The notes beneath the pieces were generated by a model. That model was given only the letters and a program-made list of their open reading frames with translations, did not search any database and had not been told where the DNA came from. The position numbers and the translations under genes are program-made. From a virus (taxonomy: Duplodnaviria; Heunggongvirae; Uroviricota; Caudoviricetes): a DNA stretch of 20,352 nucleotides. Numbering within the stretch: the first letter of the stretch is position 1; the number at the start of each line of letters is the position of its first letter. This document shows, in pieces, positions 1,920 to 15,659 of the stretch. The stretch is from the IMG/VR virus record IMGVR_UViG_2534681705_000008; one strand, 5' to 3'.

Positions 1920-2521
1920 GGATTCACTCTCATTGTATCAATAACATGGACCGCCCCGCCTTCATGCGCGGTGCCACCGGAAATAATCGTTTCGTTGATA
2001 TACGGATAGATCGTGATTTCTTCGCCAAGATAGCTGGCGGCTCCCACCCAATGCGGGCCGCTGGTCTGCAGATTGATGGACATGCCGATCATGTGGCGGC
2101 TACATGGTTTGGCATCGCTTATCAGTCGCTCAAGTTCCAGATAGGTATCTTCAGTGATGCCCTGGTCCTGCACGCCGATATCCAGGCGAAACGTGCCCGG
2201 TGTTTCTCCGGTCTGCCACCACTCAATAATGCGGATCAGGAATCCGAACGGCTCCACCACCCGCCGCACGGCACTGGTGGTCCCTTTATGCTGATGAATA
2301 TAAAAAGCATCCTTCACCACCTGGCGCTTGACGCTTTCTGTCCAGCCCTCGTCCCAGCGATCCACAGAGAACGCCCAGGCGAGATAAGGCAGGAAACTGA
2401 CCGGACAGGTTGCCGGATTCCACAAGTCACGAAGCGGCACCTGCAGATCAGAAATCCCGCTGCAGGTTTGCGCCAGTCGGCGCTCCAGTGGTGTTGAACC
2501 CGGTGGCAGCAGACTATTCAT
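1916..2521 (-). CDS. I: Baseplate assembly protein gpI
   Basis: 201 aa; P2 tail protein I-like; ATG at 2521 confirmed; synteny J-I-H. Confidence 0.85.
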   Translation of the reverse strand: MNSLLPPGSTPLERRLAQTCSGISDLQVPLRDLWNPATCPVSFLPYLAWAFSVDRWDEGWTESVKRQVVKDAFYIHQHKGTTSAVRRVVEPFGFLIRIIEWWQTGETPGTFRLDIGVQDQGITEDTYLELERLISDAKPCSRHMIGMSINLQTSGPHWVGAASYLGEEITIYPYINETIISGGTAHEGGAVHVIDTMRVNP

Positions 2522-3422
2522 CCGTTCCTCCGTTGGTTACGCTCCACTGCGTACATGATGCCGCCTGTGTTTTGTTCAGGACCACATCCGCCAGAGGAGA
2601 AGCCAGCTCCACACGCTGCACCCCCTCAACATGCAGGGCGGCAAAGATGGCGCTACGGCGAATATCCCGACCAAGACGCGTCTGACTGGCGATGTACTTC
2701 TGCAGGCTGGCTTTTGCCGCTGCCATTACCGGCTCTGCTTCCGGTCCAGGATAGAGAAAAATGGTGGCTTCCACGCGATACGGGATGATTTCTGCGCTGC
2801 GAACCGTAAGACGGTCAGCCACCGGGCGGACGTTCTCACTGTTCAGAGCTTTTTCCACCACGTCCAGCAGGTCTTTTTCTGCAGTTCCATCGCCTTCGCG
2901 GCTAAGGACAGTCAGCACCACCTCTGCAGGTGCCGGGCTGGTTGCACTGGCATCCGCCACCCGACCGTCGGCGCTTCGGGCATGAAATTCATAAGCTGCA
3001 GTTGGCCCCGCAACAGAAAGCCCTTCAAAGGCTGCAGGCACACGCAGGCGTAACGCTTCATCGCTTTCCATCACAGCTGCAACGGGCGGCACAGCATCAT
3101 TATCAGCAGGCGTCACCGTCAGGCGTGTCACGTTGTAGTTGGCAGCGAGCTGGTCAAGATCGCCGCCCATCGCGTAAGCCACCATCACCGCCTGCGCGGC
3201 TTCGTTAATGCGCTGGCGCAGAAGCAACTCACGGTAAGCATTCTCCTGCAACAATTTAGTGGCGGGTTCAGATTCCAGTTCCAGCGTGCGGATCACTGCT
3301 TCCTGCTCATCTTTCGGATGAAGCGCCACAAATTCTGCCTTGCGTTCGGCAAGCAGCGTCTCAAAGTCCGGCACATCCACAATCTGCGGTGCAGGCAACT
3401 GCGAAAGGTCAATCACTGCCAT
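2514..3422 (-). CDS. J: Baseplate assembly protein gpJ
   Basis: The ORF track extends to a GTG at 3461, but the in-frame ATG at 3422 (MAVIDLSQLPAP...) aligns with the P2 gpJ N-terminus and gives 302 aa. Confidence 0.85.
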   Translation of the reverse strand: MAVIDLSQLPAPQIVDVPDFETLLAERKAEFVALHPKDEQEAVIRTLELESEPATKLLQENAYRELLLRQRINEAAQAVMVAYAMGGDLDQLAANYNVTRLTVTPADNDAVPPVAAVMESDEALRLRVPAAFEGLSVAGPTAAYEFHARSADGRVADASATSPAPAEVVLTVLSREGDGTAEKDLLDVVEKALNSENVRPVADRLTVRSAEIIPYRVEATIFLYPGPEAEPVMAAAKASLQKYIASQTRLGRDIRRSAIFAALHVEGVQRVELASPLADVVLNKTQAASCTQWSVTNGGTDE

Positions 3423-3768
3423 TCTCTGCTCCTGTTGATACGGAAAGGGACACAGGCACACCGTTATTCCGCCGCCCGGTCAGCTCCACCACCATTGAAC
3501 CGTCAAAATTGCTGTTGATGGTGATGGAATCCAGCGTCAACCGTGGCTCCCAGCGACTCAGCGCCACATACACTGCCGACATGACCTGCAGGCGTAATGC
3601 CGGATTTTGTGGCTGATCTATCAGTGCCGACAGCAGGGAACCATATTCCCGGCGGGCAATACGGCTACCCTGCGGTGTCAGCAGAATGTCCCGCACCGAC
3701 TGGCGCAGATGATCAATATCAGTAATGACTTTGCCGCTGGTATTGTTCATCCCGCTATAAAGCGTCAT
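3409..3768 (-). CDS. W: Baseplate protein gpW (gp25/lysozyme-like baseplate wedge)
   Basis: 119 aa; ATG at 3768 confirmed; ATGA overlap with the upstream V stop; synteny. Confidence 0.85.
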   Translation of the reverse strand: MTLYSGMNNTSGKVITDIDHLRQSVRDILLTPQGSRIARREYGSLLSALIDQPQNPALRLQVMSAVYVALSRWEPRLTLDSITINSNFDGSMVVELTGRRNNGVPVSLSVSTGAENGSD

Positions 3769-4343
3769 ACCGGGCCTCCGGTTGTATCGCCGCCTTTCAG
3801 GACGCCAGTATGCTGATGCGCATCAACCACGATCCCGTTAGAACTCATCGCTCCGCCGCCCTGGGTAACGCCACCATTGATCACCACTTCGCTGTTAATG
3901 CGCGTGCGGTCAGCCTCCAGTACAAACTCACTGGTTTTCATGGTGATGTTGTCAGCAGCCTCAATGACCATTGATTTGATGCCCCTGACATACCAGCGCC
4001 CGGTGGCGGGTTCGTATTCAAACCAGCCACCGTCAGGATGTTCTGTCACGCAGGCGTCCGCCGACGTCGACGGTGGTGCGAACTGATTCGAATAGACAGC
4101 GGGCAGCGCAAAGGCGGTTTCCAGATTGCCGCCCAGACTCAGCAGCACCACCTGCTCACCTTCCGATGGTCGCCACCATGTACGGGCATTCCCGGCACGC
4201 AGCGTCAGCCAGCTGATCCAGTTGGTTTCAAGCTCGCCCGTTTTCACCCGGCAAAGCCAGTTTTCCCTGTCCACTTCGGTGACTACCCCTGTGCGGATCA
4301 GGTTGGTGATAAGGCGCATGATTTCGGTTAATTGTGCGTTCAT
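3765..4343 (-). CDS. V: Baseplate spike/assembly protein gpV
   Basis: 192 aa; N-terminus aligns with P2 gpV; ATG at 4343 confirmed. Confidence 0.9.
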   Translation of the reverse strand: MNAQLTEIMRLITNLIRTGVVTEVDRENWLCRVKTGELETNWISWLTLRAGNARTWWRPSEGEQVVLLSLGGNLETAFALPAVYSNQFAPPSTSADACVTEHPDGGWFEYEPATGRWYVRGIKSMVIEAADNITMKTSEFVLEADRTRINSEVVINGGVTQGGGAMSSNGIVVDAHQHTGVLKGGDTTGGPV

Positions 4344-4388
4344 AGGGAAAGGTTGCCATCAGGGGAAGAAAGGCGGCAGTGCTGCAAC

Positions 4389-4408
4389 TTGTATCAGTGC
4401 TGATACAA
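4389..4408. promoter_or_regulatory. Candidate late-promoter activator (Ogr/B-type) binding site: perfect palindrome TTGTATCAG-TG-CTGATACAA containing TGT-N12-ACA
   Basis: Seen in sequence between S stop (4412) and V start (4343). P2-family late promoters are known to carry a TGT-N12-ACA dyad; a P_V promoter is expected at this position. Confidence 0.5.
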
Positions 4409-4411
4409 AGA

Positions 4412-4858
4412 TCACCCCGCCAGCCATTGCAGAATCATGTCGCGGGTCATTGCCTCAACATCATCATTTACACCCAGAAGGCGACGCTCTGCGTAACGCA
4501 CCTCCGGTCCCTTACGACTGACGCGATCTCGCAGGCCGTAATGGTGAACGCGGGCAATGCGCTGCACCTTGCCTTCAAACTGCACGCTGGCAGAGTCGGT
4601 GCTGGCGGCAGTTTTCAGGTATTTTGTGGTGCGCAGCTTTGCAAACATCTGACGTTTGATACGGCCTTTTTTACTGCGTGCTGTTACCCGTCGCGGTTCA
4701 TAGCTGCTGCCGTCAGGGTTGCGCTGCATCCTGATATTCTGCTGCTGTGTCCGGCGAAGTTCCTGCGCCAGCTGGCGCATCATGCGGCTTCTCGAGGCTG
4801 GTTCCAGATTCGCCAGCAAGGCACTCAGCCAGTCGTCCACCTTCTGCAGTTCAGCCAC
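4412..4858 (-). CDS. S: Tail completion protein gpS
   Basis: 148 aa; synteny R-S-V; the start at 4858 is a GTG, so the exact start is uncertain. Confidence 0.8.
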   Translation of the reverse strand: MAELQKVDDWLSALLANLEPASRSRMMRQLAQELRRTQQQNIRMQRNPDGSSYEPRRVTARSKKGRIKRQMFAKLRTTKYLKTAASTDSASVQFEGKVQRIARVHHYGLRDRVSRKGPEVRYAERRLLGVNDDVEAMTRDMILQWLAG

Positions 4859-5303
4859 GTTTCACCGTCCACATTTCTTCAGGTGCATCAGGTTCCGCTA
4901 TAGCTTCAACGCTCGACACACTGCCGTCAGTGCTGACCAGCACACGTTCCGTCAGTTGCAGGTTCAGGCTGATATCACAGACATCGTTGCGCAGAATATC
5001 CACCTCAAAGGTGAATAGCTTTTCCCGTAACGCCGGGTTATTGATGGCATCGGGCTGGTTATCCCTCAGCCACAGCAAAACCGGGGCCATCAGCAGATTC
5101 TGGTCGCCGCTGAAATCCTCAATCACCGCGTTCAGTGTGTAACGGTACTCCCACGACATGGAGCTGGCCCCCGTGGCAACCAGCGAACCGTTATCCACAA
5201 ACAGATGCAGTTTGTCCGGGTTATTGCGGACATAAGGCACCGCTTTATTGAGGGCGTGGCGCAGGGATTGTGGTTTGTTCACTGTTTCGCTCCTGACACG
5301 CAA
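4851..5303 (-). CDS. R: Tail completion protein gpR
   Basis: Similar to P2 gpR from ...KPQSLRHALNKAV onward; the track start at 5303 is TTG; a GTG at 5282 is an alternative start. Confidence 0.8.
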   Translation of the reverse strand: MRVRSETVNKPQSLRHALNKAVPYVRNNPDKLHLFVDNGSLVATGASSMSWEYRYTLNAVIEDFSGDQNLLMAPVLLWLRDNQPDAINNPALREKLFTFEVDILRNDVCDISLNLQLTERVLVSTDGSVSSVEAIAEPDAPEEMWTVKRG

Positions 5304-5535
5304 TAATCATGTCCACTTTGTCTGCACAGACCGCCCAGGCGGCCTCCGTTTCATCCAGCAACGCGTTCAGATCACCGTTAGTGCGCGGCGTTGCCTGATC
5401 CAGCCGACACGGCGTCACTCGCGGACAACCACTGACGGTAAGCCATACCTCCGGTGAGTGCCGGACGTTTCCGCAGCCGGATAATGTCAGCAGGCAAAGG
5501 AGTATCAGCCCAGCGGCGTAAATCCTCGTTCTCAC
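5245..5535 (-). CDS. lysC: LysC-like outer-membrane spanin (Rz1-like lipoprotein), overlapping the lysB 3' end out of frame
   Basis: 96 aa; N-terminal signal with lipobox LTLSGC; GTG start at 5535; same size and position as P2 lysC. Confidence 0.65.
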   Translation of the reverse strand: MRTRIYAAGLILLCLLTLSGCGNVRHSPEVWLTVSGCPRVTPCRLDQATPRTNGDLNALLDETEAAWAVCADKVDMIIACQERNSEQTTIPAPRPQ

Positions 5536-5806
5536 GTTTCAGTTCCTCGATCCGGTGTTGTCGTTGTCTCAGCAGCGTGCTGGTCTGTTCTGCTTCGGCA
5601 TAGAGCCGCGCCTGCTCCCGGTTATTGGTTTCAGTCAGAATGGACAGGCTGATAAGCTGGCTGTTGCTCTTTGCCAGTGCCTGGCTTTTGCTATGCAGCT
5701 CGTCTGCCTGCGTGCTGATGGTCTGGCTGGCATCAGCCAGCCGCCACGTCTGCCAGCCCAGCGCCGCCAGTAATAACGCCAGCACAACCAGCAGCAACCG
5801 GTTCAT
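5378..5806 (-). CDS. lysB: LysB-like inner-membrane spanin (Rz-like)
   Basis: 142 aa; N-terminal transmembrane segment followed by a charged, coiled-coil-like region; ATG at 5806 confirmed; ATGA overlap with the upstream gene. Confidence 0.75.
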   Translation of the reverse strand: MNRLLLVVLALLLAALGWQTWRLADASQTISTQADELHSKSQALAKSNSQLISLSILTETNNREQARLYAEAEQTSTLLRQRQHRIEELKRENEDLRRWADTPLPADIIRLRKRPALTGGMAYRQWLSASDAVSAGSGNAAH

Positions 5807-6180
5807 GCTGCTACCTGTTTCGCCATCTGATTACGGGTGATCCAGAAGGCAATAACGGTCAGTAGATAAAAGACCAGGGTAATAGCCCACCCCGTCCAGG
5901 CGAGACTTACAACAATCAGCAATCGCATCACCCAACTGATAAATACGTTTTCTTTTCGGGTAATTGTCTTCAGTAAAGATGCCCTTAACTCCTGCCAGAG
6001 CGGGCCATTCTTAATTAACGCAGCCAGTGCTACCGGAATTACCGCCCATGTCAGCAAACAGGCTACCCAAACGCCGGACGCTGCCAGTACCGGAAAAATC
6101 CCCTGCGGATACACCATTGCTGCGATTAACAGCGCCATCCATAACATCAGAAACAGTCCGCTGATTAATTTCTTTTTCAT
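5803..6180 (-). CDS. lysA: LysA-like small membrane protein (putative holin/antiholin-type lysis regulator)
   Basis: ATG at 6180 (MKKKLISGLF...) lies 1 nt after the endolysin stop; several hydrophobic helices; the longer track ORF (to 6252) would overlap the endolysin by about 70 nt. Confidence 0.65.
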   Translation of the reverse strand: MKKKLISGLFLMLWMALLIAAMVYPQGIFPVLAASGVWVACLLTWAVIPVALAALIKNGPLWQELRASLLKTITRKENVFISWVMRLLIVVSLAWTGWAITLVFYLLTVIAFWITRNQMAKQVAA

Positions 6181-6181
6181 T

Positions 6182-6694
6182 TCAGTTTGCTCCCTGTAAA
6201 CACCAGGCCATCTCCCGCGCACGGCGGTTATCCAGCCCCTGATTAAACACACCTTTTACATAAACCCAGCGCGGCAACTGTCGGCACGCATCCGCCCAGC
6301 GCCGCTGATTGAGCAATTTCACCAGCGTGGAGCTGCAGGCATTGCCCGTCCCCACGTTGAAGGCAAACGACACCGTAGCGTCATACACCTTCTGTGGTGG
6401 CAGTTGCTTCACACACCTTTCCAGTACCCGCTCCACACGCAGCACGTTGGAGATCAGCCCTTCTGCTGCCTGTCGTTCCGTGATTGTTTTGCCGGGAATG
6501 ACGCCCGATGTATTACCAATGCCGTCGGTCCAGACACCCGCGCTGCACTGATACGGCTGCAGACGACAGCCTTCGTAATCAGCAATCAGTTTCAGCCCCT
6601 CCACGGAGGTGTGAAGCTGCTGAAAACCCGGCAGCGTGGCAGCAATAGCCAGCACGGCCCCGACAAGGCAGCGTTTAACGATTGATGGATTCAT
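6182..6694 (-). CDS. Endolysin, GH24 lysozyme with an N-terminal SAR-like signal-anchor
   Basis: 170 aa; hydrophobic N-terminus (CLVGAVLAIAATLPGF) followed by a lysozyme core resembling P21-type SAR endolysins; ATG at 6694 confirmed. Confidence 0.9.
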   Translation of the reverse strand: MNPSIVKRCLVGAVLAIAATLPGFQQLHTSVEGLKLIADYEGCRLQPYQCSAGVWTDGIGNTSGVIPGKTITERQAAEGLISNVLRVERVLERCVKQLPPQKVYDATVSFAFNVGTGNACSSTLVKLLNQRRWADACRQLPRWVYVKGVFNQGLDNRRAREMAWCLQGAN

Positions 6695-6890
6695 AGTCCT
6701 CCCGCGAGATCTGCCCGTCGCGCAGAAGCTGGTAGGATTTGTGTTTGTAGTACCAGTTGATAGCCAGCATCAGTACACCAATCATCAGGCCGCCCAGCGT
6801 TGAGGCATCCTTGATGGACAAATCGCCCAGCCAGGCCAGCACGACGGCGATGCAATACGTGATAAAGGCGCTGATTCGCTCAAGCGTCAT
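6675..6890 (-). CDS. Holin (small two-TM membrane protein)
   Basis: 71 aa; two hydrophobic segments and a charged C-terminus; ATG at 6890 confirmed; position immediately upstream of the endolysin. Confidence 0.7.
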   Translation of the reverse strand: MTLERISAFITYCIAVVLAWLGDLSIKDASTLGGLMIGVLMLAINWYYKHKSYQLLRDGQISREDYESINR

Positions 6891-6893
6891 AAT

Positions 6894-7097
6894 TCAGTCC
6901 CATAGCTGGACGGTCTGCACGGTGGTGGTGGTCGGAATGTCCGGCAGCTCCACCTGCAGCCCGTGAGGTAAAAAGGGGCCGTATTCGGCAAGCCCCGGAT
7001 TTGCCTTCAGTACCTGCTCCGTGACCCCCTGCGTGCGCCCGTAATGACGCCAGCAAAGCGCGTCCACCGTGTCATACTGATGCGCACGCACTTTCAT
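6894..7097 (-). CDS. X: Tail protein X (gpX)
   Basis: 67 aa, same length and position as P2 gpX; ATG at 7097 confirmed. Confidence 0.8.
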   Translation of the reverse strand: MKVRAHQYDTVDALCWRHYGRTQGVTEQVLKANPGLAEYGPFLPHGLQVELPDIPTTTTVQTVQLWD

Positions 7098-7561
7098 CAG
7101 ATAAGCTCCACTGTGCAGTGCGGCGCATCCTGCACCCGGCTGATGGCCCAGCGGGCGTCACGCCACAAATCACCGCTTGCTTCCGCCAGTTCCTCGCCCC
7201 GCTTCACACCGGACGCCGTGGCGTCATAGTCCTGGTATCGTTCGTTGAGCATGGCGCGTGCCCAGCAGTAAACCGCGTTGAAATAGTGCTGAATGCGCTC
7301 ACTTTTGCCGTCCAGCTGTTCCGCCGGAACTTCTGCCAGCGAGGCATACCCCAGCATCTGCTGGCGTCTGCGAAACTCATACAGCTCTGCGTTGACCTCC
7401 GAAATTGCCGACAGCGCAACCTGCTTTAAACGCGGCTGCGTCACCGTGCCGTCAGTGCGCATCACGCTGCGAAACTCCGACAGGTCCACATCAGGCCAGA
7501 ACGGCGTATTCCTGATGATTTCCGCCTGTTCCGGTGCCTGTTCTGGCGCAACAAACTTCAT
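7097..7561 (-). CDS. L: Head completion/stabilisation protein gpL
   Basis: The ATG at 7561 has a good SD (AGGAGA) and gives 154 aa; the track ORF extends to a GTG at 7624; similar to P2 gpL. Confidence 0.85.
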   Translation of the reverse strand: MKFVAPEQAPEQAEIIRNTPFWPDVDLSEFRSVMRTDGTVTQPRLKQVALSAISEVNAELYEFRRRQQMLGYASLAEVPAEQLDGKSERIQHYFNAVYCWARAMLNERYQDYDATASGVKRGEELAEASGDLWRDARWAISRVQDAPHCTVELI

Positions 7562-7656
7562 GCTGCTTTCTCCTGAAATAGAGGGCGGTGGACGGGGTTT
7601 TGATGTGGCAGTGCCTTTCGCCACCCCGTGCCGCCCGTGCGCGGGGGCACGTTCTG

Positions 7657-8307
7657 TCAGCGGCTGTCATTGCGCAGTCTGCGCTCCAGCTGCTGTTTGT
7701 CTTTTTTCACGCCACAGCGAGGATCGAGCTGTAACGCATGGTTGAGATGATTAAGGGCGGAAGCCGGGTTGCTTTCACTCAGGACAGCGCCAATCGCTTT
7801 ATGCAGACGCGCCCGTGACTGGTCCGGCATATCCAGACCGTCTGCCAGCTCCAGCGTCTGCAGCAACAGATCGGCATCAAAGCCGGTGGCGGCAAGCATT
7901 GCGCTCTGCGCCGCGTCTGCCATTTCCTCTGCCAGCACGGTCTGCACGTTGCGGTTACCCAGCGGCATCACCCAGCCATGACGCAGGGCATGACGCCCGA
8001 TCTCCAGCGCCCCTGCATAATCTCCGGCATCAATGCGCCACAGCATCACGTACATCAGCACGTCATCCTGTTGAGCGCCTCCGGCAGCCAGAACGCCCTC
8101 CGCCCAGGCGGCATATTTCGGCAGCAGCTCCACCTTGATTTCCGCTTTTTTGACCGTGGACTGAACGCCCTTGAGACGGCGGCGGTCTTCCGCCAGTTGC
8201 AGCAGCATCAGGTCATAGCCCGACGCGTGGCGAACACTGCCACCCTCGCGAGCGGCCTGTTCAGCCTGAACGCGCAGGCGATGCTGCCGTGCGGGACTCA
8301 GGCTCAT
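7657..8307 (-). CDS. M: Terminase endonuclease (small) subunit gpM
   Basis: 216 aa; ATG at 8307 confirmed; synteny O-N-M-L. Confidence 0.85.
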   Translation of the reverse strand: MSLSPARQHRLRVQAEQAAREGGSVRHASGYDLMLLQLAEDRRRLKGVQSTVKKAEIKVELLPKYAAWAEGVLAAGGAQQDDVLMYVMLWRIDAGDYAGALEIGRHALRHGWVMPLGNRNVQTVLAEEMADAAQSAMLAATGFDADLLLQTLELADGLDMPDQSRARLHKAIGAVLSESNPASALNHLNHALQLDPRCGVKKDKQQLERRLRNDSR

Positions 8308-8310
8308 GAA

Positions 8311-9369
8311 TTACGCTCCGGTTTCTGCTGCGGTGGCGCTGAAGTCACCAATCTGGATGTTTTCCACCAGTGCAGCGCAGCGATAGTCCTCAACCACATA
8401 GGCTTCGTTAACGGATTCAAAATTTTCAATCCGGTCACGTTTCGGGTTGTCGATAACTGAACGGCGGCGGGTATCTTCCTGCCAGTAGATGGACAGGTTA
8501 TCCAGACGGGTGATCAGCAGCGCATTCGGCGGGAAGAACGGCGCACGCACCGCCTGCAGACCACCCATGCGTTTCTGACTGATGATCATATCGGCAGCCA
8601 GTTTTTCACTGTTTTCCTGCTCTTTGTTGACCAGCGGGAAATACTTGTCAGACAGCAGTTCACGACCGCAAATCACCACCAGATCGTCATCGTCCTGGTA
8701 GACCACGTCGATAAGCTCATTGACGGCATCCATCACTACGGCGTCCAGGTTGGCATATTCGCCACCTTTCCCGACTTTCACCGCGCCCGGTGTGGTTTCA
8801 CCGCCCGTGGTGGTGCTGCCCATGACGTGATCCGGTGCATCCTCACGGATTTTCTGCAGCCAGCCTTTGTTCACATCCTGCAGCAGCGGGTTTTCGCTAC
8901 GGTTGGAGGTTTTCGCACGCTTCACGCCGTTAAAGCCGATCATGATGCGGTCCAGTGCCTGACGTTTCACGATGGCGTTACGGATACGCACCTGGAAATC
9001 CTGAAACTTCGCCCACAGGTCCAGCTTCGCGTAGGTCAGCACCGTGTCAAAGTTGGTCTGTTCGCATTTGTATTCCACATCGACCATCAGCGTCGGATCG
9101 ACAGGTTCTCGCTCTTTCGCGGTGGTATCAGTGGTTCCGGCAATGGTGCTGCCAACACCCAGCCCCAGCAACTGACCAGACTGCTCAGTCACTGGCGTGA
9201 CGTTAATCAGCGTCAGGAAAGAGGCGGACTGCTGGATCTGGTCTTCCAGCGTCTGCTGCACGGACGGCTCTACGGTGAACTTGCTGGACAGTTCTTCAAC
9301 TGCCACACCGTTCAGACGCGCCAGCTGCTGCAGGTAAGCGTTAAAAGCAAAGCGGGTATTCTTCTTCAT
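8311..9369 (-). CDS. N: Major capsid protein gpN
   Basis: 352 aa; strong resemblance along its length to the P2 major capsid protein; ATG at 9369 confirmed. Confidence 0.95.
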   Translation of the reverse strand: MKKNTRFAFNAYLQQLARLNGVAVEELSSKFTVEPSVQQTLEDQIQQSASFLTLINVTPVTEQSGQLLGLGVGSTIAGTTDTTAKEREPVDPTLMVDVEYKCEQTNFDTVLTYAKLDLWAKFQDFQVRIRNAIVKRQALDRIMIGFNGVKRAKTSNRSENPLLQDVNKGWLQKIREDAPDHVMGSTTTGGETTPGAVKVGKGGEYANLDAVVMDAVNELIDVVYQDDDDLVVICGRELLSDKYFPLVNKEQENSEKLAADMIISQKRMGGLQAVRAPFFPPNALLITRLDNLSIYWQEDTRRRSVIDNPKRDRIENFESVNEAYVVEDYRCAALVENIQIGDFSATAAETGA

Positions 9370-9385
9370 CGGGTTTTGTGCTCCA

Positions 9386-10219
9386 TCAGCAATTGGTCAG
9401 AGTGTCAGCGGGGGCGTTACCGCCTGTTGCACGCTGGCGGTAGTCCTGGCGGCTGTCTTCATGACTCAGCTTGTCCACCAGTTCGTTAAAGGCGGTCTGC
9501 TGTGCCTGCAGGGCAGTCTCCAGCTCAGACAGACGTTCTTCCTGCTCAGACAGGGATTTTTCGGTGCGTGCGCTCAGGTTTTGCTGCTCAGTGGCGACCA
9601 GCTCCACGGCCTTATGCACATCAGAGAACCGGGCATCGTCGGACTGCTCTTTTTTGGTAAACAGCGCCGTGACACGGGCAAACAGGGACGGTTTGTCCTC
9701 CTGGATTTCTTCCAGTTCGATCACCGTTTCCTCTGCGGCGGTAAAGAGATTGGCGGGATTCTGCTTGCGGTTTGCCAGCGGGTTATGGGCTGCACTGGCG
9801 CTGAATGTCAGCATTTCCGTACCCAAACTGGCAGGGTCATCAGTGGCAGCCAGGCCGACCAGGTAGGCTTTGCCCGTATCAGCGAACTTCGGGCTGACTT
9901 CCATAGAGGTGAATAATTTCTGGCCTTTTTTCACCAATTCCACCAGGGACTCCGTTGGCTCAACGTCGGCATACAGCGCCATCTTGCCTGCCAGCGGGCC
10001 TTCCGTGATTTCTTCAGCAAACAGCGCCGTCACCTTGCCGTAACGGTTAAAGGTGCTGTCCGGGAGATAAGACTTGATGTGCTCAAGGTTAATCAGCGCG
10101 GTATACACCGCCGGGTTGTAGCTGGCTGCCATCTGTTCCAGCCATTCACGCTGGATTTCGCGTCCGTCGGTGGTGGCACCTTCCACCCCGATGCGAAAAC
10201 GCTTTGCTTTCACTGTCAT
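9386..10219 (-). CDS. O: Capsid scaffolding protein gpO
   Basis: 277 aa; ATG at 10219 confirmed; divergent from P, as in P2. Confidence 0.9.
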   Translation of the reverse strand: MTVKAKRFRIGVEGATTDGREIQREWLEQMAASYNPAVYTALINLEHIKSYLPDSTFNRYGKVTALFAEEITEGPLAGKMALYADVEPTESLVELVKKGQKLFTSMEVSPKFADTGKAYLVGLAATDDPASLGTEMLTFSASAAHNPLANRKQNPANLFTAAEETVIELEEIQEDKPSLFARVTALFTKKEQSDDARFSDVHKAVELVATEQQNLSARTEKSLSEQEERLSELETALQAQQTAFNELVDKLSHEDSRQDYRQRATGGNAPADTLTNC

Positions 10220-10295
10220 GAGCCGTGCTCCGTTAGAAATAACTTACTGGAGCCTTATGGTTGCGGTGATGGGGGCAGTGAAACAATGCGCGGTA

Positions 10296-10317
10296 TTTGT
10301 ACCGACAACCACACAAA
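10296..10317. promoter_or_regulatory. Candidate late-promoter activator site (TTTGT-N12-ACAAA) in the O/P divergent intergenic region
   Basis: TGT at 10298..10300 and ACA at 10313..10315 with short symmetric flanks; the O and P late promoters are expected in this 142-bp gap. Confidence 0.4.
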
Positions 10318-10361
10318 CCGCAGGCGGGGAAAGCCTTCATTCAAGGCTGTAGGTTTGTGCC

Positions 10362-12128
10362 ATGAACACCACACTGACACCCGCAGATCTCGATCCCCGT
10401 CGGCAGGCCATGCTGCTGTACTTTCAGGGATACCGCGTAGCCCGCATTGCTGAAATGCTGGGCGAGAAAGTTGCAACCGTTCACAGCTGGAAGAAACGCG
10501 ACAAGTGGGGTGACTATGGGCCGCTGGATCAGATGCAGCTCACCACCGCCGCACGTTACTGCCAGCTCATTATGAAGGAGCACAAAGAAGGGAAAGATTT
10601 CAAAGAAATTGACCTGCTGGCGCGCCAGTCGGAGCGCCACGCGCGGATCGGCAAGTTTAACAATGGCGGCAACGAAGCCGACTTAAACCCTAACGTCGCC
10701 AACCGCAACAAAGGCCCGCGCCGTCAGCCGGAAAAGAATGTTTTCACCGATGAACAGATAGAGAAACTGGAAGAAATCTTCCATTCCTCCATGTTCAACT
10801 ACCAGCGCCACTGGTGGGAAGCCGGAAAAACCAACCGCATCCGCAACCTGCTGAAGTCACGCCAGATCGGCGCGACCTTTTACTTTGCCCGTGAAGCCCT
10901 GATTGACGCCCTGCTTACCGGACGTAACCAGATTTTCCTTTCTGCCAGTAAGGCACAGGCTCACGTCTTTAAGCAGTACATCATCGACTTCGCCAAAGAA
11001 GTCGAGGTGGAGCTGAAAGGCGATCCGATGGTGCTTCCTAACGGGGCCACGCTTTACTTCCTCGGCACCAATGCCCGCACGGCGCAGAGTTACCACGGCA
11101 ACCTGTATCTGGATGAATATTTCTGGATACCGAAATTCCAGGAGTTGCGCAAAGTGGCTTCCGGTATGGCTATTCACAAGAAATGGCGACAAACCTATTT
11201 TTCCACGCCATCCAGCCTGACCCACAGTGCTTATCCGTTCTGGTCCGGTGCGCTGTTCAACCGTGGACGCAACAAAGCTGACAAGGTGGACATCGACCTG
11301 TCCCACAGCAATCTGGCCCCCGGCCTACTGTGCGCAGACGGGCAATACCGCCAGATAGTCACCGTGGAAGATGCGGTGCGCGGCGGCTGTAACCTGTTCG
11401 ACCTCGACCAGCTGCGCATGGAGTACAGCCCGGACGAATACCAGAACCTGCTGATGTGCGAGTTCGTGGACGATCTCGCGTCCGTGTTCCCGCTCAGCGA
11501 ACTGCAGGCGTGCATGGTGGACAGCTGGGAAGTCTGGACCGACTTTCATGCACTGGCCCTGCGCCCGTTTGGCTGGCGCGAAGTGTGGATCGGTTATGAC
11601 CCGGCAAAAGGTACGCAGAACGGCGACAGTGCCGGATGCGTGGTGGTGGCTCCGCCAGCCGTGCCGGGTGGTAAGTTCCGCATTCTTGAGCGTCACCAGT
11701 GGCGCGGGATGGACTTCCGCGCCCAGGCTGACGCCATCAAAAAACTGACCGAACAGTATAACGTGACCTATATCGGTATCGACTCGACCGGCGTCGGTCA
11801 CGGGGTTTACGAGAACGTGAAAGCGTTTTTTCCTGCCGTCAGGGAGTTTGTCTATAACCCCAACGTTAAAAACGCCCTGGTACTCAAGGCCTACGACATT
11901 ATCAGCCACCGCCGTCTGGAGTTTGACGCCGGGCACACCGACATTGCGCAGTCATTTATGGCAATCCGTCGCGCTACCACTGCCAGTGGCAACCGCCCGA
12001 CCTATGAAGCCAGCCGCAGCGAAGAAGCCAGCCATGCCGATCTGGCCTGGGCAACAATGCACGCACTGTTTAACGAACCGCTGCAGGGCGAGTCCGCCAA
12101 TACCAGCAATATTGTGGAGATTTTTTGA
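10362..12128 (+). CDS. P: Terminase ATPase (large) subunit gpP
   Basis: 588 aa; P2 gpP-like; ATG at 10362; stop overlaps the Q start (TGATG). Confidence 0.95.
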   Translation: MNTTLTPADLDPRRQAMLLYFQGYRVARIAEMLGEKVATVHSWKKRDKWGDYGPLDQMQLTTAARYCQLIMKEHKEGKDFKEIDLLARQSERHARIGKFNNGGNEADLNPNVANRNKGPRRQPEKNVFTDEQIEKLEEIFHSSMFNYQRHWWEAGKTNRIRNLLKSRQIGATFYFAREALIDALLTGRNQIFLSASKAQAHVFKQYIIDFAKEVEVELKGDPMVLPNGATLYFLGTNARTAQSYHGNLYLDEYFWIPKFQELRKVASGMAIHKKWRQTYFSTPSSLTHSAYPFWSGALFNRGRNKADKVDIDLSHSNLAPGLLCADGQYRQIVTVEDAVRGGCNLFDLDQLRMEYSPDEYQNLLMCEFVDDLASVFPLSELQACMVDSWEVWTDFHALALRPFGWREVWIGYDPAKGTQNGDSAGCVVVAPPAVPGGKFRILERHQWRGMDFRAQADAIKKLTEQYNVTYIGIDSTGVGHGVYENVKAFFPAVREFVYNPNVKNALVLKAYDIISHRRLEFDAGHTDIAQSFMAIRRATTASGNRPTYEASRSEEASHADLAWATMHALFNEPLQGESANTSNIVEIF

Positions 12129-13165
12129 TGGGAAAGAGTAAGAAGAACCGCGCTGCGTCGACGAAACAGATCCAGCATAAAAGCCAGACTTCAGCCGAAG
12201 CATTCAGCTTCGGTGATCCCGTTCCTGTTCTGGACCGCCGCGAACTGCTGGACTATGTGGAATGCGTACAGATGGATCGTTGGTACGAGCCGCCTGTGAG
12301 TTTCGACGGACTGGCGCGAACCTTCCGCGCCGCCGTGCATCACAGCTCACCGATTGCAGTGAAGTGCAACATTCTGACCAGCACCTACATCCCTCACCCG
12401 CTGCTCAGCCAGCAGGCTTTTTCGCGTTTTGTACAGGACTATCTGGTTTTTGGTAACGCCTACCTGGAGAAACGCACGAACCGCTTCGGTGAAGTTATCG
12501 CCCTTGAGCCTGCACTGGCAAAATACACCCGACGCGGGTTAGACCTTGATACCTACTGGTTTGTGCAATACGGCATGACTACACAGCCGTATCAGTTCAC
12601 GAAAGGCAACATTTTTCATCTGATGGAACCGGACATCAACCAGGAGATCTACGGCCTGCCTGGTTATCTTTCTGCCATTCCGTCAGCCCTGCTCAACGAG
12701 TCCGCCACGCTGTTCCGTCGAAAGTATTACATTAACGGCAGTCATGCAGGCTTCATCATGTACATGACCGACGCCGCGCAGAACCAGGAGGATGTAAACA
12801 ACCTCCGTAACGCGATGAAAAGCGCCAAAGGACCAGGTAACTTCCGCAATCTGTTTATGTACTCGCCTAACGGCAAAAAGGACGGACTTCAGATCATCCC
12901 ATTGTCAGAAGTCGCGGCGAAGGATGAGTTTCTGAATATCAAAAATGTCAGCCGCGATGACATGATGGCAGCGCACCGTGTGCCACCGCAAATGATGGGG
13001 ATTATGCCGAATAATGTTGGGGGGTTTGGGGATGTGGAGAAGGCAAGCCGTGTATTCGTCCGAAATGAGCTAATGCCACTACAAAAGCGATTACAGGAGA
13101 TGAATGATTGGCTTGGCAAGGAGGCGATACGGTTTGATACCTACTCGCTAGATATAGCCCCATAA
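12128..13165 (+). CDS. Q: Portal vertex protein gpQ
   Basis: The track start at 12125 is TTG; the ATG at 12128 gives 345 aa (MGKSKKNRA...); P2 gpQ-like. Confidence 0.95.
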   Translation: MGKSKKNRAASTKQIQHKSQTSAEAFSFGDPVPVLDRRELLDYVECVQMDRWYEPPVSFDGLARTFRAAVHHSSPIAVKCNILTSTYIPHPLLSQQAFSRFVQDYLVFGNAYLEKRTNRFGEVIALEPALAKYTRRGLDLDTYWFVQYGMTTQPYQFTKGNIFHLMEPDINQEIYGLPGYLSAIPSALLNESATLFRRKYYINGSHAGFIMYMTDAAQNQEDVNNLRNAMKSAKGPGNFRNLFMYSPNGKKDGLQIIPLSEVAAKDEFLNIKNVSRDDMMAAHRVPPQMMGIMPNNVGGFGDVEKASRVFVRNELMPLQKRLQEMNDWLGKEAIRFDTYSLDIAP

Positions 13166-13169
13166 TAAG

Positions 13170-13193
13170 AAAAGCCACCGTTTGGTGGCTTTT
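13170..13193. terminator. Bidirectional intrinsic terminator hairpin between convergent Q and the HipS-HIRAN gene
   Basis: Perfect 10-bp inverted repeat AAAAGCCACC-gttt-GGTGGCTTTT, with A-run and T-run flanks usable on either strand. Confidence 0.6.
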
Positions 13194-13199
13194 CTTCAT

Positions 13200-13940
13200 T
13201 TACTCAATAGGTTCAAACTCATCTTGAGGAATCAGCGTCGATTGACAGGCTTGGCTTAGTACCCCTGATAATTTACATAATAACCGATAGTTATGAGGAG
13301 CATCATCGCTAATCTTTTCGACCGTTAAAGTGATTGATTTTGGATCATCCAATAACATCTTCTTGATGTCATTACTTAAATACCTAGGGCAGTAACCAAC
13401 GATTTCAGCTGGTTTATCTGCACGAACGACAACAGCATCCCCATCGTATTCATTTTGAAGATCCAAGCAAAGACGCAAAATTTGCCCCGGTTTCAATTCA
13501 GATACACGAGCATTAGCTAAGCTATTCAAGTAACCAAGTCCATGTAAGAAGAAAAAATGCTCAAAGTTACCATCAGAATCAAAATCAATTTTTTTGAAAA
13601 TCTGCAGCTGATCAGTGCTTCGTAAGCCTCCCGAGCGAGCAAGAATATCGATAGGATTTACCTTATCTTCTTCAAATCCAAGCCATTTAATGAAACTCGG
13701 ATACTCTGGACGTCTCGGTGATAAAAGGCGATTTTTAAAAAGAGGAAACAATTCTTCCGATACATAAGTTTCACGAACATCACTCATGCCGCTAAACTTT
13801 GTAAATTTAGAAGATTTAAGAGCACCTTTGGTATACCTGAAAACATACCCCGATTTGCGCTCTTGCAAGTTACCAACAACATGCCAGTCTCTGGTATCTG
13901 GTGCCTGCCATGCGACGTAAACGGAGTTTGTATTAGTCAT
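13200..13940 (-). CDS. HipS-like (HipA N-subdomain-like) domain fused to a C-terminal HIRAN domain; putative antitoxin/sensor partner of the adjacent kinase
   Basis: 246 aa. N-terminal ~115 aa resemble the HipA N-terminal/HipS fold (VGNLQERKSGYVFRY..., ELFPLFKNRLLSP..., IDILARSGG). C-terminal ~90 aa carry HIRAN-like motifs (LHGLGYLNS; LQNEYDGDAVVV resembling NPYDxNAIxV; IVGYCPRYLSNDIKKML). ATG at 13940 overlaps the kinase stop (ATGA). Confidence 0.6.
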   Translation of the reverse strand: MTNTNSVYVAWQAPDTRDWHVVGNLQERKSGYVFRYTKGALKSSKFTKFSGMSDVRETYVSEELFPLFKNRLLSPRRPEYPSFIKWLGFEEDKVNPIDILARSGGLRSTDQLQIFKKIDFDSDGNFEHFFFLHGLGYLNSLANARVSELKPGQILRLCLDLQNEYDGDAVVVRADKPAEIVGYCPRYLSNDIKKMLLDDPKSITLTVEKISDDAPHNYRLLCKLSGVLSQACQSTLIPQDEFEPIE

Positions 13941-14851
13941 TCTAGTAACCTTCTGCGATTTTCCATTACCATTAACGTTGCAAATCTACGTGCACTGTCG
14001 GATATACACGATGAAGGCACTTGGTTAAACACATCTGTAATGGAATCTTCTGTTAAAACGCTCAACTTACCTAACCAATGGTCGCGAGCGGCAACTCTCC
14101 CTTCAACTGCATGTTGAAATGCTTCAACAGTCAGCAAGGGCTTTTTATCAGTTTTTGCTTTGAATAGCTCAGAGCGAGCTTTTCTTACAAAACATGGGAT
14201 TTGTCGATTTTTATCTTTAGTATTAAGCCGTTCGTTACGCTCATCATCTAACATCTCCCTTCCTAAACTAGCGGCATGATCGTATGTTGGACACAAAAAC
14301 TGCTCACCAGTTTCATTGTTAAGCATGATTGCCCAATTTTCATGGTGGCGATCTTGATTACTCACAAGTGCATCGAGCATCAAATATCCACAAAATACAT
14401 CTGCTGCATTTAGCCCGGTTAGATCATATACACTCGGAGGAGGCTTGATAGATTCCCTATCTAAACAACCCAAGACCCTTGTGACAGTGTGTTCTCTGAC
14501 CCTTACCGGCTTTTCCCCGGCTTGTAAAGGCCCAGGATAATCGAATGTCGAACTGTGAAGCACTTCATTTCCCATTACCATCCGGAAACCAGATGGAATG
14601 ATATTCTGAGTCACCACACCGAATCGACCATTGTATCGCGCCAAATCATAGCTAGCATGTGGAATGTTAAGCAAATGACATAACTCAGCAGCACACTTTT
14701 CAGACCAATGCTCGCCAGTACCTGGCCTAGAGTACTTAAACAACTGCAAATTTACAGTGTCATCGGAGAAATAGAACCAAAACTTCTCTTTGGTTCCTAA
14801 CTGTTCAAGATCGTTAGCTACGGGGCTAAGCTCTACCAATTGGTATGGCAT
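13937..14851 (-). CDS. HipT/HipA-like Ser/Thr kinase core (HipA_C superfamily), lacking the HipA N-terminal subdomain
   Basis: 304 aa. Gly-rich loop GTKEKF (res 19-24, resembling the HipA/HipT GxQxK loop), catalytic motif SNQDRHHENW (res 164-173, resembling GxxDxHxKN), and Mg-binding-type YD in CPTYDHAASLG (res 190-191). ATG at 14851 confirmed. Confidence 0.7.
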   Translation of the reverse strand: MPYQLVELSPVANDLEQLGTKEKFWFYFSDDTVNLQLFKYSRPGTGEHWSEKCAAELCHLLNIPHASYDLARYNGRFGVVTQNIIPSGFRMVMGNEVLHSSTFDYPGPLQAGEKPVRVREHTVTRVLGCLDRESIKPPPSVYDLTGLNAADVFCGYLMLDALVSNQDRHHENWAIMLNNETGEQFLCPTYDHAASLGREMLDDERNERLNTKDKNRQIPCFVRKARSELFKAKTDKKPLLTVEAFQHAVEGRVAARDHWLGKLSVLTEDSITDVFNQVPSSCISDSARRFATLMVMENRRRLLE

Positions 14852-14944
14852 CTGACATCCCTGTTTAGCGGATTATGAATAAGTTAGGTTCCATTTTATC
14901 CAAACATTGTCAAATACCCTAAGATTTATTAGATGATAGAGCGA

Positions 14945-14964
14945 TACTGTATGTATGTCCAGCA
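14945..14964. promoter_or_regulatory. LexA-box-like sequence (TACTGTATGTATGTCCAGCA; CTG-N10-CAG spacing retained) about 95 bp upstream of the kinase operon
   Basis: About 16/20 match to the E. coli SOS-box consensus TACTGTATATATATACAGTA, with CTG and CAG correctly spaced; right half-site is CCAG rather than ACAG. Confidence 0.3.
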
Positions 14965-15003
14965 ATCAAATCAATATATAACTCTTATATGGCTTAACGC
15001 GCG

Positions 15004-15022
15004 CTCGTATCCCCGCCACGCC
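15004..15022 (-). other. Candidate cos (cohesive-end) site: GGCGTGGCGGGGA... on the minus strand
   Basis: The 13-mer GGCGTGGCGGGGA matches the start of the P2/186 19-nt cohesive end as I recall it (P2 GGCGAGGCGGGGAAAGCAC); the location between the A/tum side and Q is where cos is expected. Confidence 0.5.
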
Positions 15023-15226: not shown

Positions 15227-15460
15227 TTAATGCAGCCAGCTGTCGTCTTCCCACACCTTCTGCATAATTTTCATCACTTGTTTTCTTTCTTCGTCCAGTT
15301 GCAGTCCGGTTAGTTCCACACCGTTAGAGCTACCTTTGCGAATGCGAATTACCGTTTTGGGATACAGGGGGCGCAGATTGCGGTAAAGCTCGGATTCAAG
15401 GGCGTCCAGGGTAGACTGGCTAATCTTCTGCTCTTTATCGATCATTATTTCAATGCGCAT
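15227..15460 (-). CDS. DinI-family protein (SOS-inducible; 186 Tum C-terminal-domain-like)
   Basis: 77 aa from the ATG at 15460 (MRIEIMIDKEQ...KVWEDDSWLH), similar to E. coli DinI; SD GAGGTG upstream; the track ORF is extended to 15532. Confidence 0.8.
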   Translation of the reverse strand: MRIEIMIDKEQKISQSTLDALESELYRNLRPLYPKTVIRIRKGSSNGVELTGLQLDEERKQVMKIMQKVWEDDSWLH

Positions 15461-15470
15461 AAAAGTCACC

Positions 15471-15659
15471 TCAGCTGATGACATCCATTGAGCGGTTGTA
15501 TTCGTGGGTTCTGATTTTTGCCATGAGTTCATCAGTCAATTCAGAAACCCACTGCAGAGCCAGCCCCTTCTCTTCATCACTACACTCACTAGCCGCTACA
15601 AGCTTAAGAAAAAAATCAATGCGCTGGAGCTTCAAAGACTCCAAAAAATAGTCCTGCAT
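15471..15659 (-). CDS. Small protein, first gene of the SOS operon (possible Tum-like antirepressor N-terminal module)
   Basis: 62 aa from the ATG at 15659 with GGAGG upstream; the longer track ORF (to 15761) would run through the LexA box and promoter and is unlikely. Confidence 0.45.
   Translation of the reverse strand: MQDYFLESLKLQRIDFFLKLVAASECSDEEKGLALQWVSELTDELMAKIRTHEYNRSMDVIS

Follow-up and report, generated by a model that had tools for sequence, protein, structure and literature searches.

What are two small, overlapping genes doing between the portal gene and the cos site of a P2-like prophage, and might they protect its host from other phages? The question is raised by a stretch of 20,352 nucleotides of viral DNA (IMG/VR record IMGVR_UViG_2534681705_000008, Caudoviricetes; we call the whole stretch the window), in which positions 13200-14851 hold a gene for a HipA-superfamily kinase followed by a gene for a partner protein. 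An earlier note on the window had suggested that the pair is a kinase toxin held in check by its partner and released upon phage infection. Hip kinases are best known for their role in antibiotic persistence, and how they are activated in nature is still debated. We are nearly certain that the pair is hipIN, which is also catalogued in PADLOC as PDC-M03. As to what it does, we favour on balance, and with modest confidence, the reading that it is accessory anti-phage cargo, in which a Hip kinase toxin would be triggered through a HIRAN domain and would abort the infection; this reading is built by analogy with related systems. The pair consists of these features:

13937..14851, minus strand: gene 1, the core of a Ser/Thr kinase that looks like a member of the HipA superfamily (HipI-type; PDC-M03A), an open reading frame (ORF) of 304 amino acids
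13200..13940, minus strand: gene 2, the HipN-type partner (PDC-M03B), predicted to be HipS-like plus HIRAN, an ORF of 246 amino acids
13581..13940, minus strand: predicted HipS-like domain of the partner (similar to subdomain 1 of the HipA N-terminal region), residues ~1-120
13257..13562, minus strand: HIRAN domain of the partner, residues 127-228
13937..13940, minus strand: ATGA overlap of the kinase stop codon (TGA) and the partner start codon (ATG), read in the sequence (TCAT on the plus strand)

Both genes are real and conserved. We found homologues of the kinase in 955 clusters of 90% identity (E ≤ 1e-5) and homologues of the partner in 535 clusters (E ≤ 1e-3); if the partner family is clustered at 50% identity instead, there are 1226 clusters at E ≤ 1e-3, and 712 of these reach E ≤ 1e-10. 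Among 150 cluster representatives listed for the partner, nearly all are 240-265 amino acids long and align over most of their length. At 13937-13940 the stop codon of the kinase overlaps the start codon of the partner, and this overlap is predicted to couple the translation of the two genes; the ORFs and the sequence are exactly as the earlier note had described them. The two genes also overlap or nearly abut in E. coli, in V. cholerae and in the viral loci. A motif resembling a Shine-Dalgarno sequence (AGGGA, plus-strand positions 14858-14862) lies 6 nucleotides ahead of the ATG of the kinase. Neither the ORF list nor Pfam gave a third gene, another plausible gene or a helix-turn-helix (HTH) gene within the cargo at 13166-14997, which agrees with the earlier statement that no HipB-type HTH gene is present.

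Is gene 1 a Hip kinase? Its similarity to the Pfam model HipA_C is weak (E = 3.6e-4, 20.7 bits, with a cut-off of 30.5), NCBIfam has no model that matches either protein, and PHROGs lists both families as "unknown function". In PADLOC the kinase matched only the PDC-M03A models, over residues 2-304 (E = 2.1e-122). When we searched the solved structures with the single sequences of both proteins, nothing was significant (the H. pylori kinase CtkA had E = 0.43 and the toxin YafQ had E = 0.84), so a comparison of folds was needed. An AlphaFold2 model of the kinase was built with 51 homologues as input (predicted local distance difference test or pLDDT, 84.8; predicted template modelling score or pTM, 0.85). 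In Foldseek its best match was CtkA (E = 2e-10, template modelling score 0.65-0.71), followed by HipA from E. coli and Shewanella (from E = 7e-7) and HipT from Legionella (E = 1e-5 to 5e-5); HipT from E. coli was absent from the best 50 matches. The earlier note had called gene 1 HipT-like, and this was too specific, given that Legionella HipT comes after both CtkA and HipA in the Foldseek ranking.

The residues expected of a kinase are in place. CtkA was the only solved structure that the family profile of the kinase matched significantly (E = 2.8e-4); this profile pairs D167 and D191 of the kinase with D155 and D179 of CtkA, with the catalytic loop aligned. Across the 51 homologues, G19-T-K-E-K23, K39, N165-Q-D-R-H-H-E-N-W173 and Y190-D-H192 are invariant. 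Because the catalytic residues align to CtkA and, like the Gly-rich loop and K39, are invariant, gene 1 looks like an active kinase of the HipA superfamily. The Gly-rich loop lies at residues 16-23, and because it begins so early, subdomain 1 of the HipA N-terminal region is missing from the kinase; the earlier note's description of a compact HipA-family core without this subdomain is thus supported by both the fold matches and the loop. By a reading of the loop motifs, Ser150 of HipA and Ser57/Ser59 of HipT, the autophosphorylated residues, would correspond to Glu16 and Leu18 of this kinase, and both of these are invariant. Control by autophosphorylation at these positions would not apply, provided that the alignment is right. 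The model has pLDDT below 50 at residues 97-109 and 113-118, a stretch that includes the invariant Y105-P106. Residues 97-118 may form a flexible loop that is functionally important.

The missing subdomain appears to be encoded next door. The partner matches the PADLOC model PDC-M03B over residues 1-244 (E = 6.8e-93) and Pfam's HIRAN over residues 127-228 (E = 1e-13, above the cut-off), and it matches Pfam's Couple_hipA over residues 20-72 below the cut-off (E = 0.014). The earlier note had expected profile hits to HipA_C in gene 1 and to HipA_N or Couple_hipA plus HIRAN in gene 2: HIRAN came out as anticipated, but HipA_C and Couple_hipA stayed below their thresholds. The AlphaFold2 model of the partner has two domains (pLDDT 88.9, pTM 0.84), and Foldseek supports both of them, one HipS-like and the other HIRAN. 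A profile search by sequence reached neither HipS nor HLTF. A direct alignment of profile to sequence (hhalign) placed residues 20-70 of the partner on residues 12-59 of HipS (E = 3e-4). From these models and alignments, gene 2 is predicted to supply the missing HipA subdomain in trans, as a HipS-like domain fused to HIRAN, and the two-domain architecture given in the earlier note is borne out by Pfam, Foldseek and hhalign. Some sources label the partner as a restriction endonuclease; we rejected this label, as neither Pfam nor the fold searches gave a nuclease domain.

How closely do the two domains resemble their better-known relatives? For HIRAN, residues D166, Y165, N163, Q162 and R186 of the partner align with D94, Y93, N91, N90 and K113 of HLTF (E = 1e-3), which we take to be the residues that hold the 3'-OH end of DNA. 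D166, N163, Q162 and R186 are invariant in the partner family, and the counterparts of D94, Y93, N91 and K113 are kept. (Phe142 of HLTF is beyond the end of the aligned HIRAN block and hence outside this comparison.) For the HipS-like domain, the hhalign block stops at S59 of HipS and N70 of the partner. Six residues further on, HipS has Trp65, which we take to be the residue that plugs the active site of HipT and is inhibitory in HipBST. In the partner, residues 71-85 are free of Trp and include an invariant loop, S74-P-R-R-P-E-Y80; the first Trp after the block is W86, which is also invariant.

Given these features, we are nearly certain that the pair is hipIN. In a bioinformatic study, Gerdes, Baerentsen and Brodersen (2021, mBio, PMC8262856) described hipIN as the HipI kinase followed by HipN, a protein with HipS-like and HIRAN domains; this is the survey of HipA homologues with HIRAN partners to which the earlier note had alluded. 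They proposed neutralisation by the HipS-like part, DNA binding by HIRAN, and that hipIN is a toxin-antitoxin (TA) module, and they also described single-chain HipL fusions. In the window, as in hipIN, the core kinase motifs occur without subdomain 1, the partner is directly downstream (the reverse of hipBA), and HIRAN is at the C-terminus. The survey of 1,239 kinases by Gerdes et al. yielded only 14 hipIN modules, in comparison to the 712 clusters (50% identity, E ≤ 1e-10) of the partner family here. The pair is likewise PDC-M03 (PADLOC-DB v2; Payne et al. 2024, 10.1101/2024.01.29.577857), for which the source cassette is CAS_00033, with a count of 684 and the remark "Assign as candidate PDC-M03"; the genes are adjacent and overlap, and they match the A and B models. 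At the locus that is 100% identical to ours, the RefSeq accessions are WP_001146828 and WP_000185756, and both accessions appear among the P2-hotspot arrangements in Table S5A of Rousset et al. 2022 (PMC9122126), in some genomes beside entries for DarT/Macro or Mrr_cat. Table S6 of the same paper names a Vibrio "HIRAN-kinase". A 2025 paper in Nucleic Acids Research states that HIRAN-HipA operons are "predicted" to be defence systems and leaves the link for investigation. In Millman 2022, in a 2025 modularity-network preprint and in a single-cell study, HIRAN is either absent or present only in author names. The system is thus not new; it has already been catalogued bioinformatically, down to its accessions.

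Does the location of the pair inform us about its function? The relevant features around it are:

10362-12128: terminase gene P
12125-13165: portal gene Q, with its stop at 13165
13166..14997, no strand: exchangeable cargo, from the Q stop codon to the cos region (blastn against related P2-like phages)
13167..13196, no strand: hairpin with a stem of 13 base pairs (bp) between the convergent Q and partner genes (RNA fold)
14933..14961, minus strand: promoter-like site, TGGACA-17-TATCAT, in the direction from cos to Q (consensus scan, 10/12 matches)
15004..15022, minus strand: cos-like 19-mer, GGCGTGGCGGGGATACGAG, 14/19 identical to the annotated cosL of P2
15230-15460: DinI-like gene (Pfam DinI, E = 6.6e-23)
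15474-15659: ORF of 62 amino acids, on the A side of cos
15813-18236: replication gene A

In blastn comparisons, similarity to related P2-like phages stops around 13085 and restarts at 14992-14998, which delimits an exchangeable segment of about 13166-14997 that is up against cos. Its content in relatives is unrelated: Escherichia phage vB_EcoM-813R9 has a Hypoth_Ymh gene in the slot between Q and cos, while in Klebsiella phage 4LV2017 this slot is filled by a reverse transcriptase and a hypothetical gene. The earlier note's placement of the cargo in a variable interval between Q and A is therefore correct. It had also equated this interval with the one that holds old and tin in P2; this is right for the Q-A interval as a whole, which is a defence hotspot according to Rousset et al. 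(PMC9122126), but not for the exact slot. In P2 the gap between cosL and Q is only 167 bp, and old and tin are on the opposite (A) side of cos. The GC (guanine plus cytosine) content is 0.40-0.42 over 13001-15000 and 0.51-0.60 over 1001-13000, the phage backbone to the left, which suggests that the segment is foreign cargo. The cos-like 19-mer has the same orientation relative to Q as in P2; it marks the edge of the cargo and lies outside the system itself.

The cargo has candidate signals at both ends. Only its match to the consensus speaks for the promoter-like site, and such sites are fewer in this region (two) than in its shuffled sequence (mean 6.0). The hairpin at 13167-13196 was missed by a terminator scan and was revealed by direct folding: with an energy of -21 kcal/mol (z = -6.2), it folds better than every one of 200 shuffled sequences. 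It is at the position of the annotated tQ terminator of P2, and we think that it is probably a two-way terminator.

A few other observations concern the surroundings of the slot. The last ~26 codons of Q (13085-13165) already lack similarity to related P2-like phages, which places the recombination junction of the cargo within the final part of the Q coding sequence and not between the genes. On the other side of cos, 15230-15659 (the DinI-like gene and the 62-amino-acid ORF) is conserved in related P2-like prophages, whose annotations at the equivalent position are a DinI-like gene or "SOS induction modulator" and a small hypothetical gene; because this stretch is conserved, there is no variable cargo on the A side here, unlike in P2 with its old and tin. 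An IS110-family element, which RefSeq annotates as "IS110 family RNA-guided transposase", runs from ~19580 to the end of the window; 5015 of 5426 E. coli genomes have a match to it, with 93-99% identity among the copies listed. The ORF at 19012-19620 (minus strand) covers only positions 97-253 of the 253-position Pfam model for D12-class Dam methylases, and a related prophage has an intact gene of 855 bp for such a methylase. The IS110 element appears to interrupt this methylase gene of the prophage.

The distribution of the pair shows that it is one mobile unit. In 56 of 57 loci on viral contigs, the HIRAN partner immediately follows the kinase; the remaining locus is cut off. The identities of the kinase and the partner to ours drop in parallel across the viral loci, from 100/99% to 42/47% (r = 0.99). 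The Q-cos slot of P2-like phages accounts for about 40 of the 57 loci, with Q proteins that are only 62-100% identical. Of 5426 complete E. coli genomes, 21 have the locus, in each case beside a portal gene. Elsewhere, the pair is in the early region of a lambdoid-like prophage (L042), adjoins methylase or restriction-modification-like genes (L054 and L063, with the restriction-modification-like genes in L063), adjoins integrases (L064 and L068), or shares an E. coli island with genes for AlpA and a primase. In L052 (6001-7669) its neighbours are virion structural genes, and the gene that directly follows it encodes a protein of 553 amino acids that, by its position and sequence, is presumably a tape-measure protein. 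This virion-gene site is an unusual place for a cargo insertion.

Relatives are rare among deposited phages: in 50,697 phage genomes, only five records contain one, at 27-38% identity. Four of these are Vibrio elements of the Vinavirales and one is a C. difficile phage. In Vibrio phage 10N.222.46.E12_PE001 (PQ189286; our L071, 2935-4649), a kinase that is 37% identical to ours and a HIRAN partner are by the integrase. The elements of this type are 14-kb non-tailed temperate elements (Vinavirales, Tectiliviricetes) of Vibrio cyclitrophicus, so the module crosses between tailed and non-tailed phage lineages. We found no DNA match to the pair on plasmids. Overall, the two genes co-evolve and move jointly among unrelated temperate phages and chromosomal sites. 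As is usual for anti-phage defence systems, the pair is variable cargo in hotspots and mobile elements, in some cases beside known systems.

One record deserves separate mention. E. coli CFSAN061772 (NZ_CP042893; L001) has the identical module at two places, and its series of ogr, D, tail, tape-measure (annotated as truncated), X, L and M genes also occurs twice. The P2-like prophage of this strain seems to be partly duplicated in tandem.

These data also bear on whether the pair serves the phage itself, by aiding replication or packaging of the P2 type, for instance if HIRAN acted on the neighbouring cos ends. The pair does directly adjoin cos, and HIRAN is a binder of DNA ends. But close P2-like relatives lack the pair and have unrelated genes in the slot, and P2 has only its 167 bp there; only those 21 E. 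coli genomes have it; it is also in lambdoid prophages, in Vinavirales elements and at chromosomal sites outside phages; and PHROGs gives both families no function. The earlier note had allowed that the locus might prove to be a conserved core part of this phage lineage, and the close relatives without the pair argue otherwise. We reject a role in the phage life cycle, which we consider very improbable, because the pair is missing from close relatives and is found in unrelated elements.

We instead favour, with the modest confidence stated above, an abortive-infection mechanism, whose steps are modelled on HipS-HipT and on a validated system of a HipA-like kinase with a DUF3037 protein. In the lysogen, the HipS-like domain would bind the kinase and keep it inactive. 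If another phage infects, 3' ends of DNA would arise as its DNA is injected, replicated or degraded, and HIRAN would bind these ends, so that the inhibitor is removed or remodelled. Once freed, the kinase would phosphorylate a host protein that the cell cannot do without. By analogy with HipA and HipT, the likeliest target is a translation factor, for example an aminoacyl-tRNA synthetase; growth would halt and the infection would abort. This model, like the plausible one in the earlier note, restates the published hypothesis for hipIN. A sharper claim, that HIRAN is itself the direct sensor of 3'-OH ends of phage DNA and unlocks the kinase allosterically via the fused HipS-like domain, is tentative, and we think that the odds are against it.

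A different mechanism could be built from the same two domains. The partner might be an activating or targeting subunit: the HipS-like domain would complete the HipA fold, and HIRAN would bring an active, non-toxic kinase to DNA ends. The kinase would then phosphorylate replication, recombination or SOS factors of the phage or the host that are bound to DNA, and the outcome would be either that a rival phage is blocked directly or that induction of the prophage itself is tuned. We consider this quite unlikely. HipS inhibits the kinase in the HipBST systems with solved structures; the validated sister system acts as a toxin and its neutraliser; and nothing here points to a substrate that is bound to DNA.

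Several points weigh against a toxin that is unlocked by DNA ends for defence. First, regulation may differ from that of HipBST: HipS Trp65 has no evident counterpart just past the aligned block and, by the reading of the motif, Glu16 and Leu18 would occupy the phospho-serine positions. Second, the carrier phage should make 3' ends of its own. Nicking at ori by gpA is expected to produce them during replication, and cutting of cos for packaging presumably does as well, so a trigger that responds purely to ends would need some way to avoid activating itself at induction. Third, in V. cholerae the pair is a bare two-gene insert among housekeeping genes, with no defence island. Fourth, residence in a hotspot is not proof of defence: of eight further P2-hotspot systems that Rousset et al. 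2022 (PMC9122126) cloned, three were active, and there is no sign of the pair among those eight. Similarly, we found no experimental test of the pair in the literature that we searched (Brenes and Laub 2025 was outside that search) and no phenotype for PDC-M03, which PADLOC labels as a candidate only. The interaction of the kinase with its partner, the toxicity, the trigger and the target are all putative, by analogy with the related systems; the co-evolution of the two proteins (r = 0.99) and the natural HipL fusions described by Gerdes et al. lend indirect support to a putative toxin that its partner would neutralise by direct binding.

The solitary V. cholerae locus speaks for a plain TA or addiction module without any role in defence. 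The toxin (the kinase) and its antitoxin (HipS-HIRAN) would then serve to stabilise the prophage or would spread selfishly, and DNA binding by HIRAN would have some other use, for example in autoregulation or localisation. Hip is a classic type II TA family, hipIN was proposed to be a TA module (PMC8262856), and since no HTH regulator is present, the DNA-binding domain might assume the regulatory role of HipB. We found no HTH, ribbon-helix-helix or AbrB-type domain in either protein, which leaves HIRAN as the sole DNA-binding module; the pair lacks the sequence-specific DNA-binding domain with which type II TA systems repress their own operon. HIRAN is a poor fit to operator binding, as we take it from the structures of HLTF to recognise ends of DNA and not sequences. 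The pair also prefers hotspots where relatives carry other cargo such as a reverse transcriptase, it has DarT/Macro and Mrr_cat beside it in the table of Rousset et al., it is a defence candidate in Payne 2024 (10.1101/2024.01.29.577857), and a sister TA pair with a HipA-like kinase defends against phage. We therefore think it unlikely, though worth keeping in mind, that the pair is solely an addiction module, and we return to defence by abortive infection as the favoured reading.

What would follow if that reading is correct? A Hip kinase inhibitor that is fused to a reader of DNA ends would give a concrete and testable trigger, and it would link the Hip family to anti-phage immunity, a link that was already begun by the HipA-like kinase with DUF3037. 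Bacterial HIRAN domains would gain a function as well. If the sharper claim of direct sensing held too, the pair would be an immune effector in which a protein kinase is triggered by nucleic-acid ends, with a defined trigger for a toxin of the Hip family, and this would be the first function assigned to a prokaryotic HIRAN domain; in the literature that we examined, bacterial HIRAN domains are treated mainly by analogy with eukaryotic enzymes that remodel replication forks. The window is of practical more than conceptual value, as the source of a compact cassette of ~1.8 kb (13166-14997) with a promoter-like site and a terminator hairpin, from a prophage of E. coli.

How does the pair compare to known systems? 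It has no architectural difference from hipIN: the order is the same, with the kinase first, and the kinase is small, without N-subdomain 1, and there is no HipB. We also found no difference from PDC-M03, as both proteins match the A and B models at full length and B adjoins A. HipBST, from E. coli O127:H6 and Legionella pneumophila, is more distant: it has three genes (hipB-hipS-hipT) including the HTH protein HipB, whereas here there are two genes, with the kinase first and without an HTH, and this reversal of the hipBST order is as the earlier note had it. HipS stands alone in HipBST, and here the HipS-like domain is fused to HIRAN; Trp65 of HipS has no evident counterpart in the partner just past the aligned block; and the model of our kinase is nearer to CtkA and HipA than to Legionella HipT. 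CtkA (H. pylori JHP0940, PDB 3AKJ) is the best match by fold and its catalytic motifs align, but its sequence identity is only 14-17%. HLTF and Rad5 combine HIRAN with a SWI/SNF helicase and a RING ligase instead of a HipS-like domain. Like this cargo, old and tin of P2 are exchangeable accessory genes by cos, between Q and A, with their own promoter near cos (a candidate one in this cargo), but they are on the A side and this cargo is on the Q side, and the proteins are unrelated. Finally, the system of a HipA-like kinase with DUF3037 (or DUF1829), known as DS-6, HipAD or PDC-M66, likewise has two genes, for a HipA-family kinase and a partner other than HipB that is predicted to bind both the kinase and DNA; its partner has DUF3037/DUF1829 domains rather than HipS-like and HIRAN domains. 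This system defends against phage, its kinase is required, and deletion of its partner is toxic, and it is the nearest experimentally validated analogue for how our pair might work.

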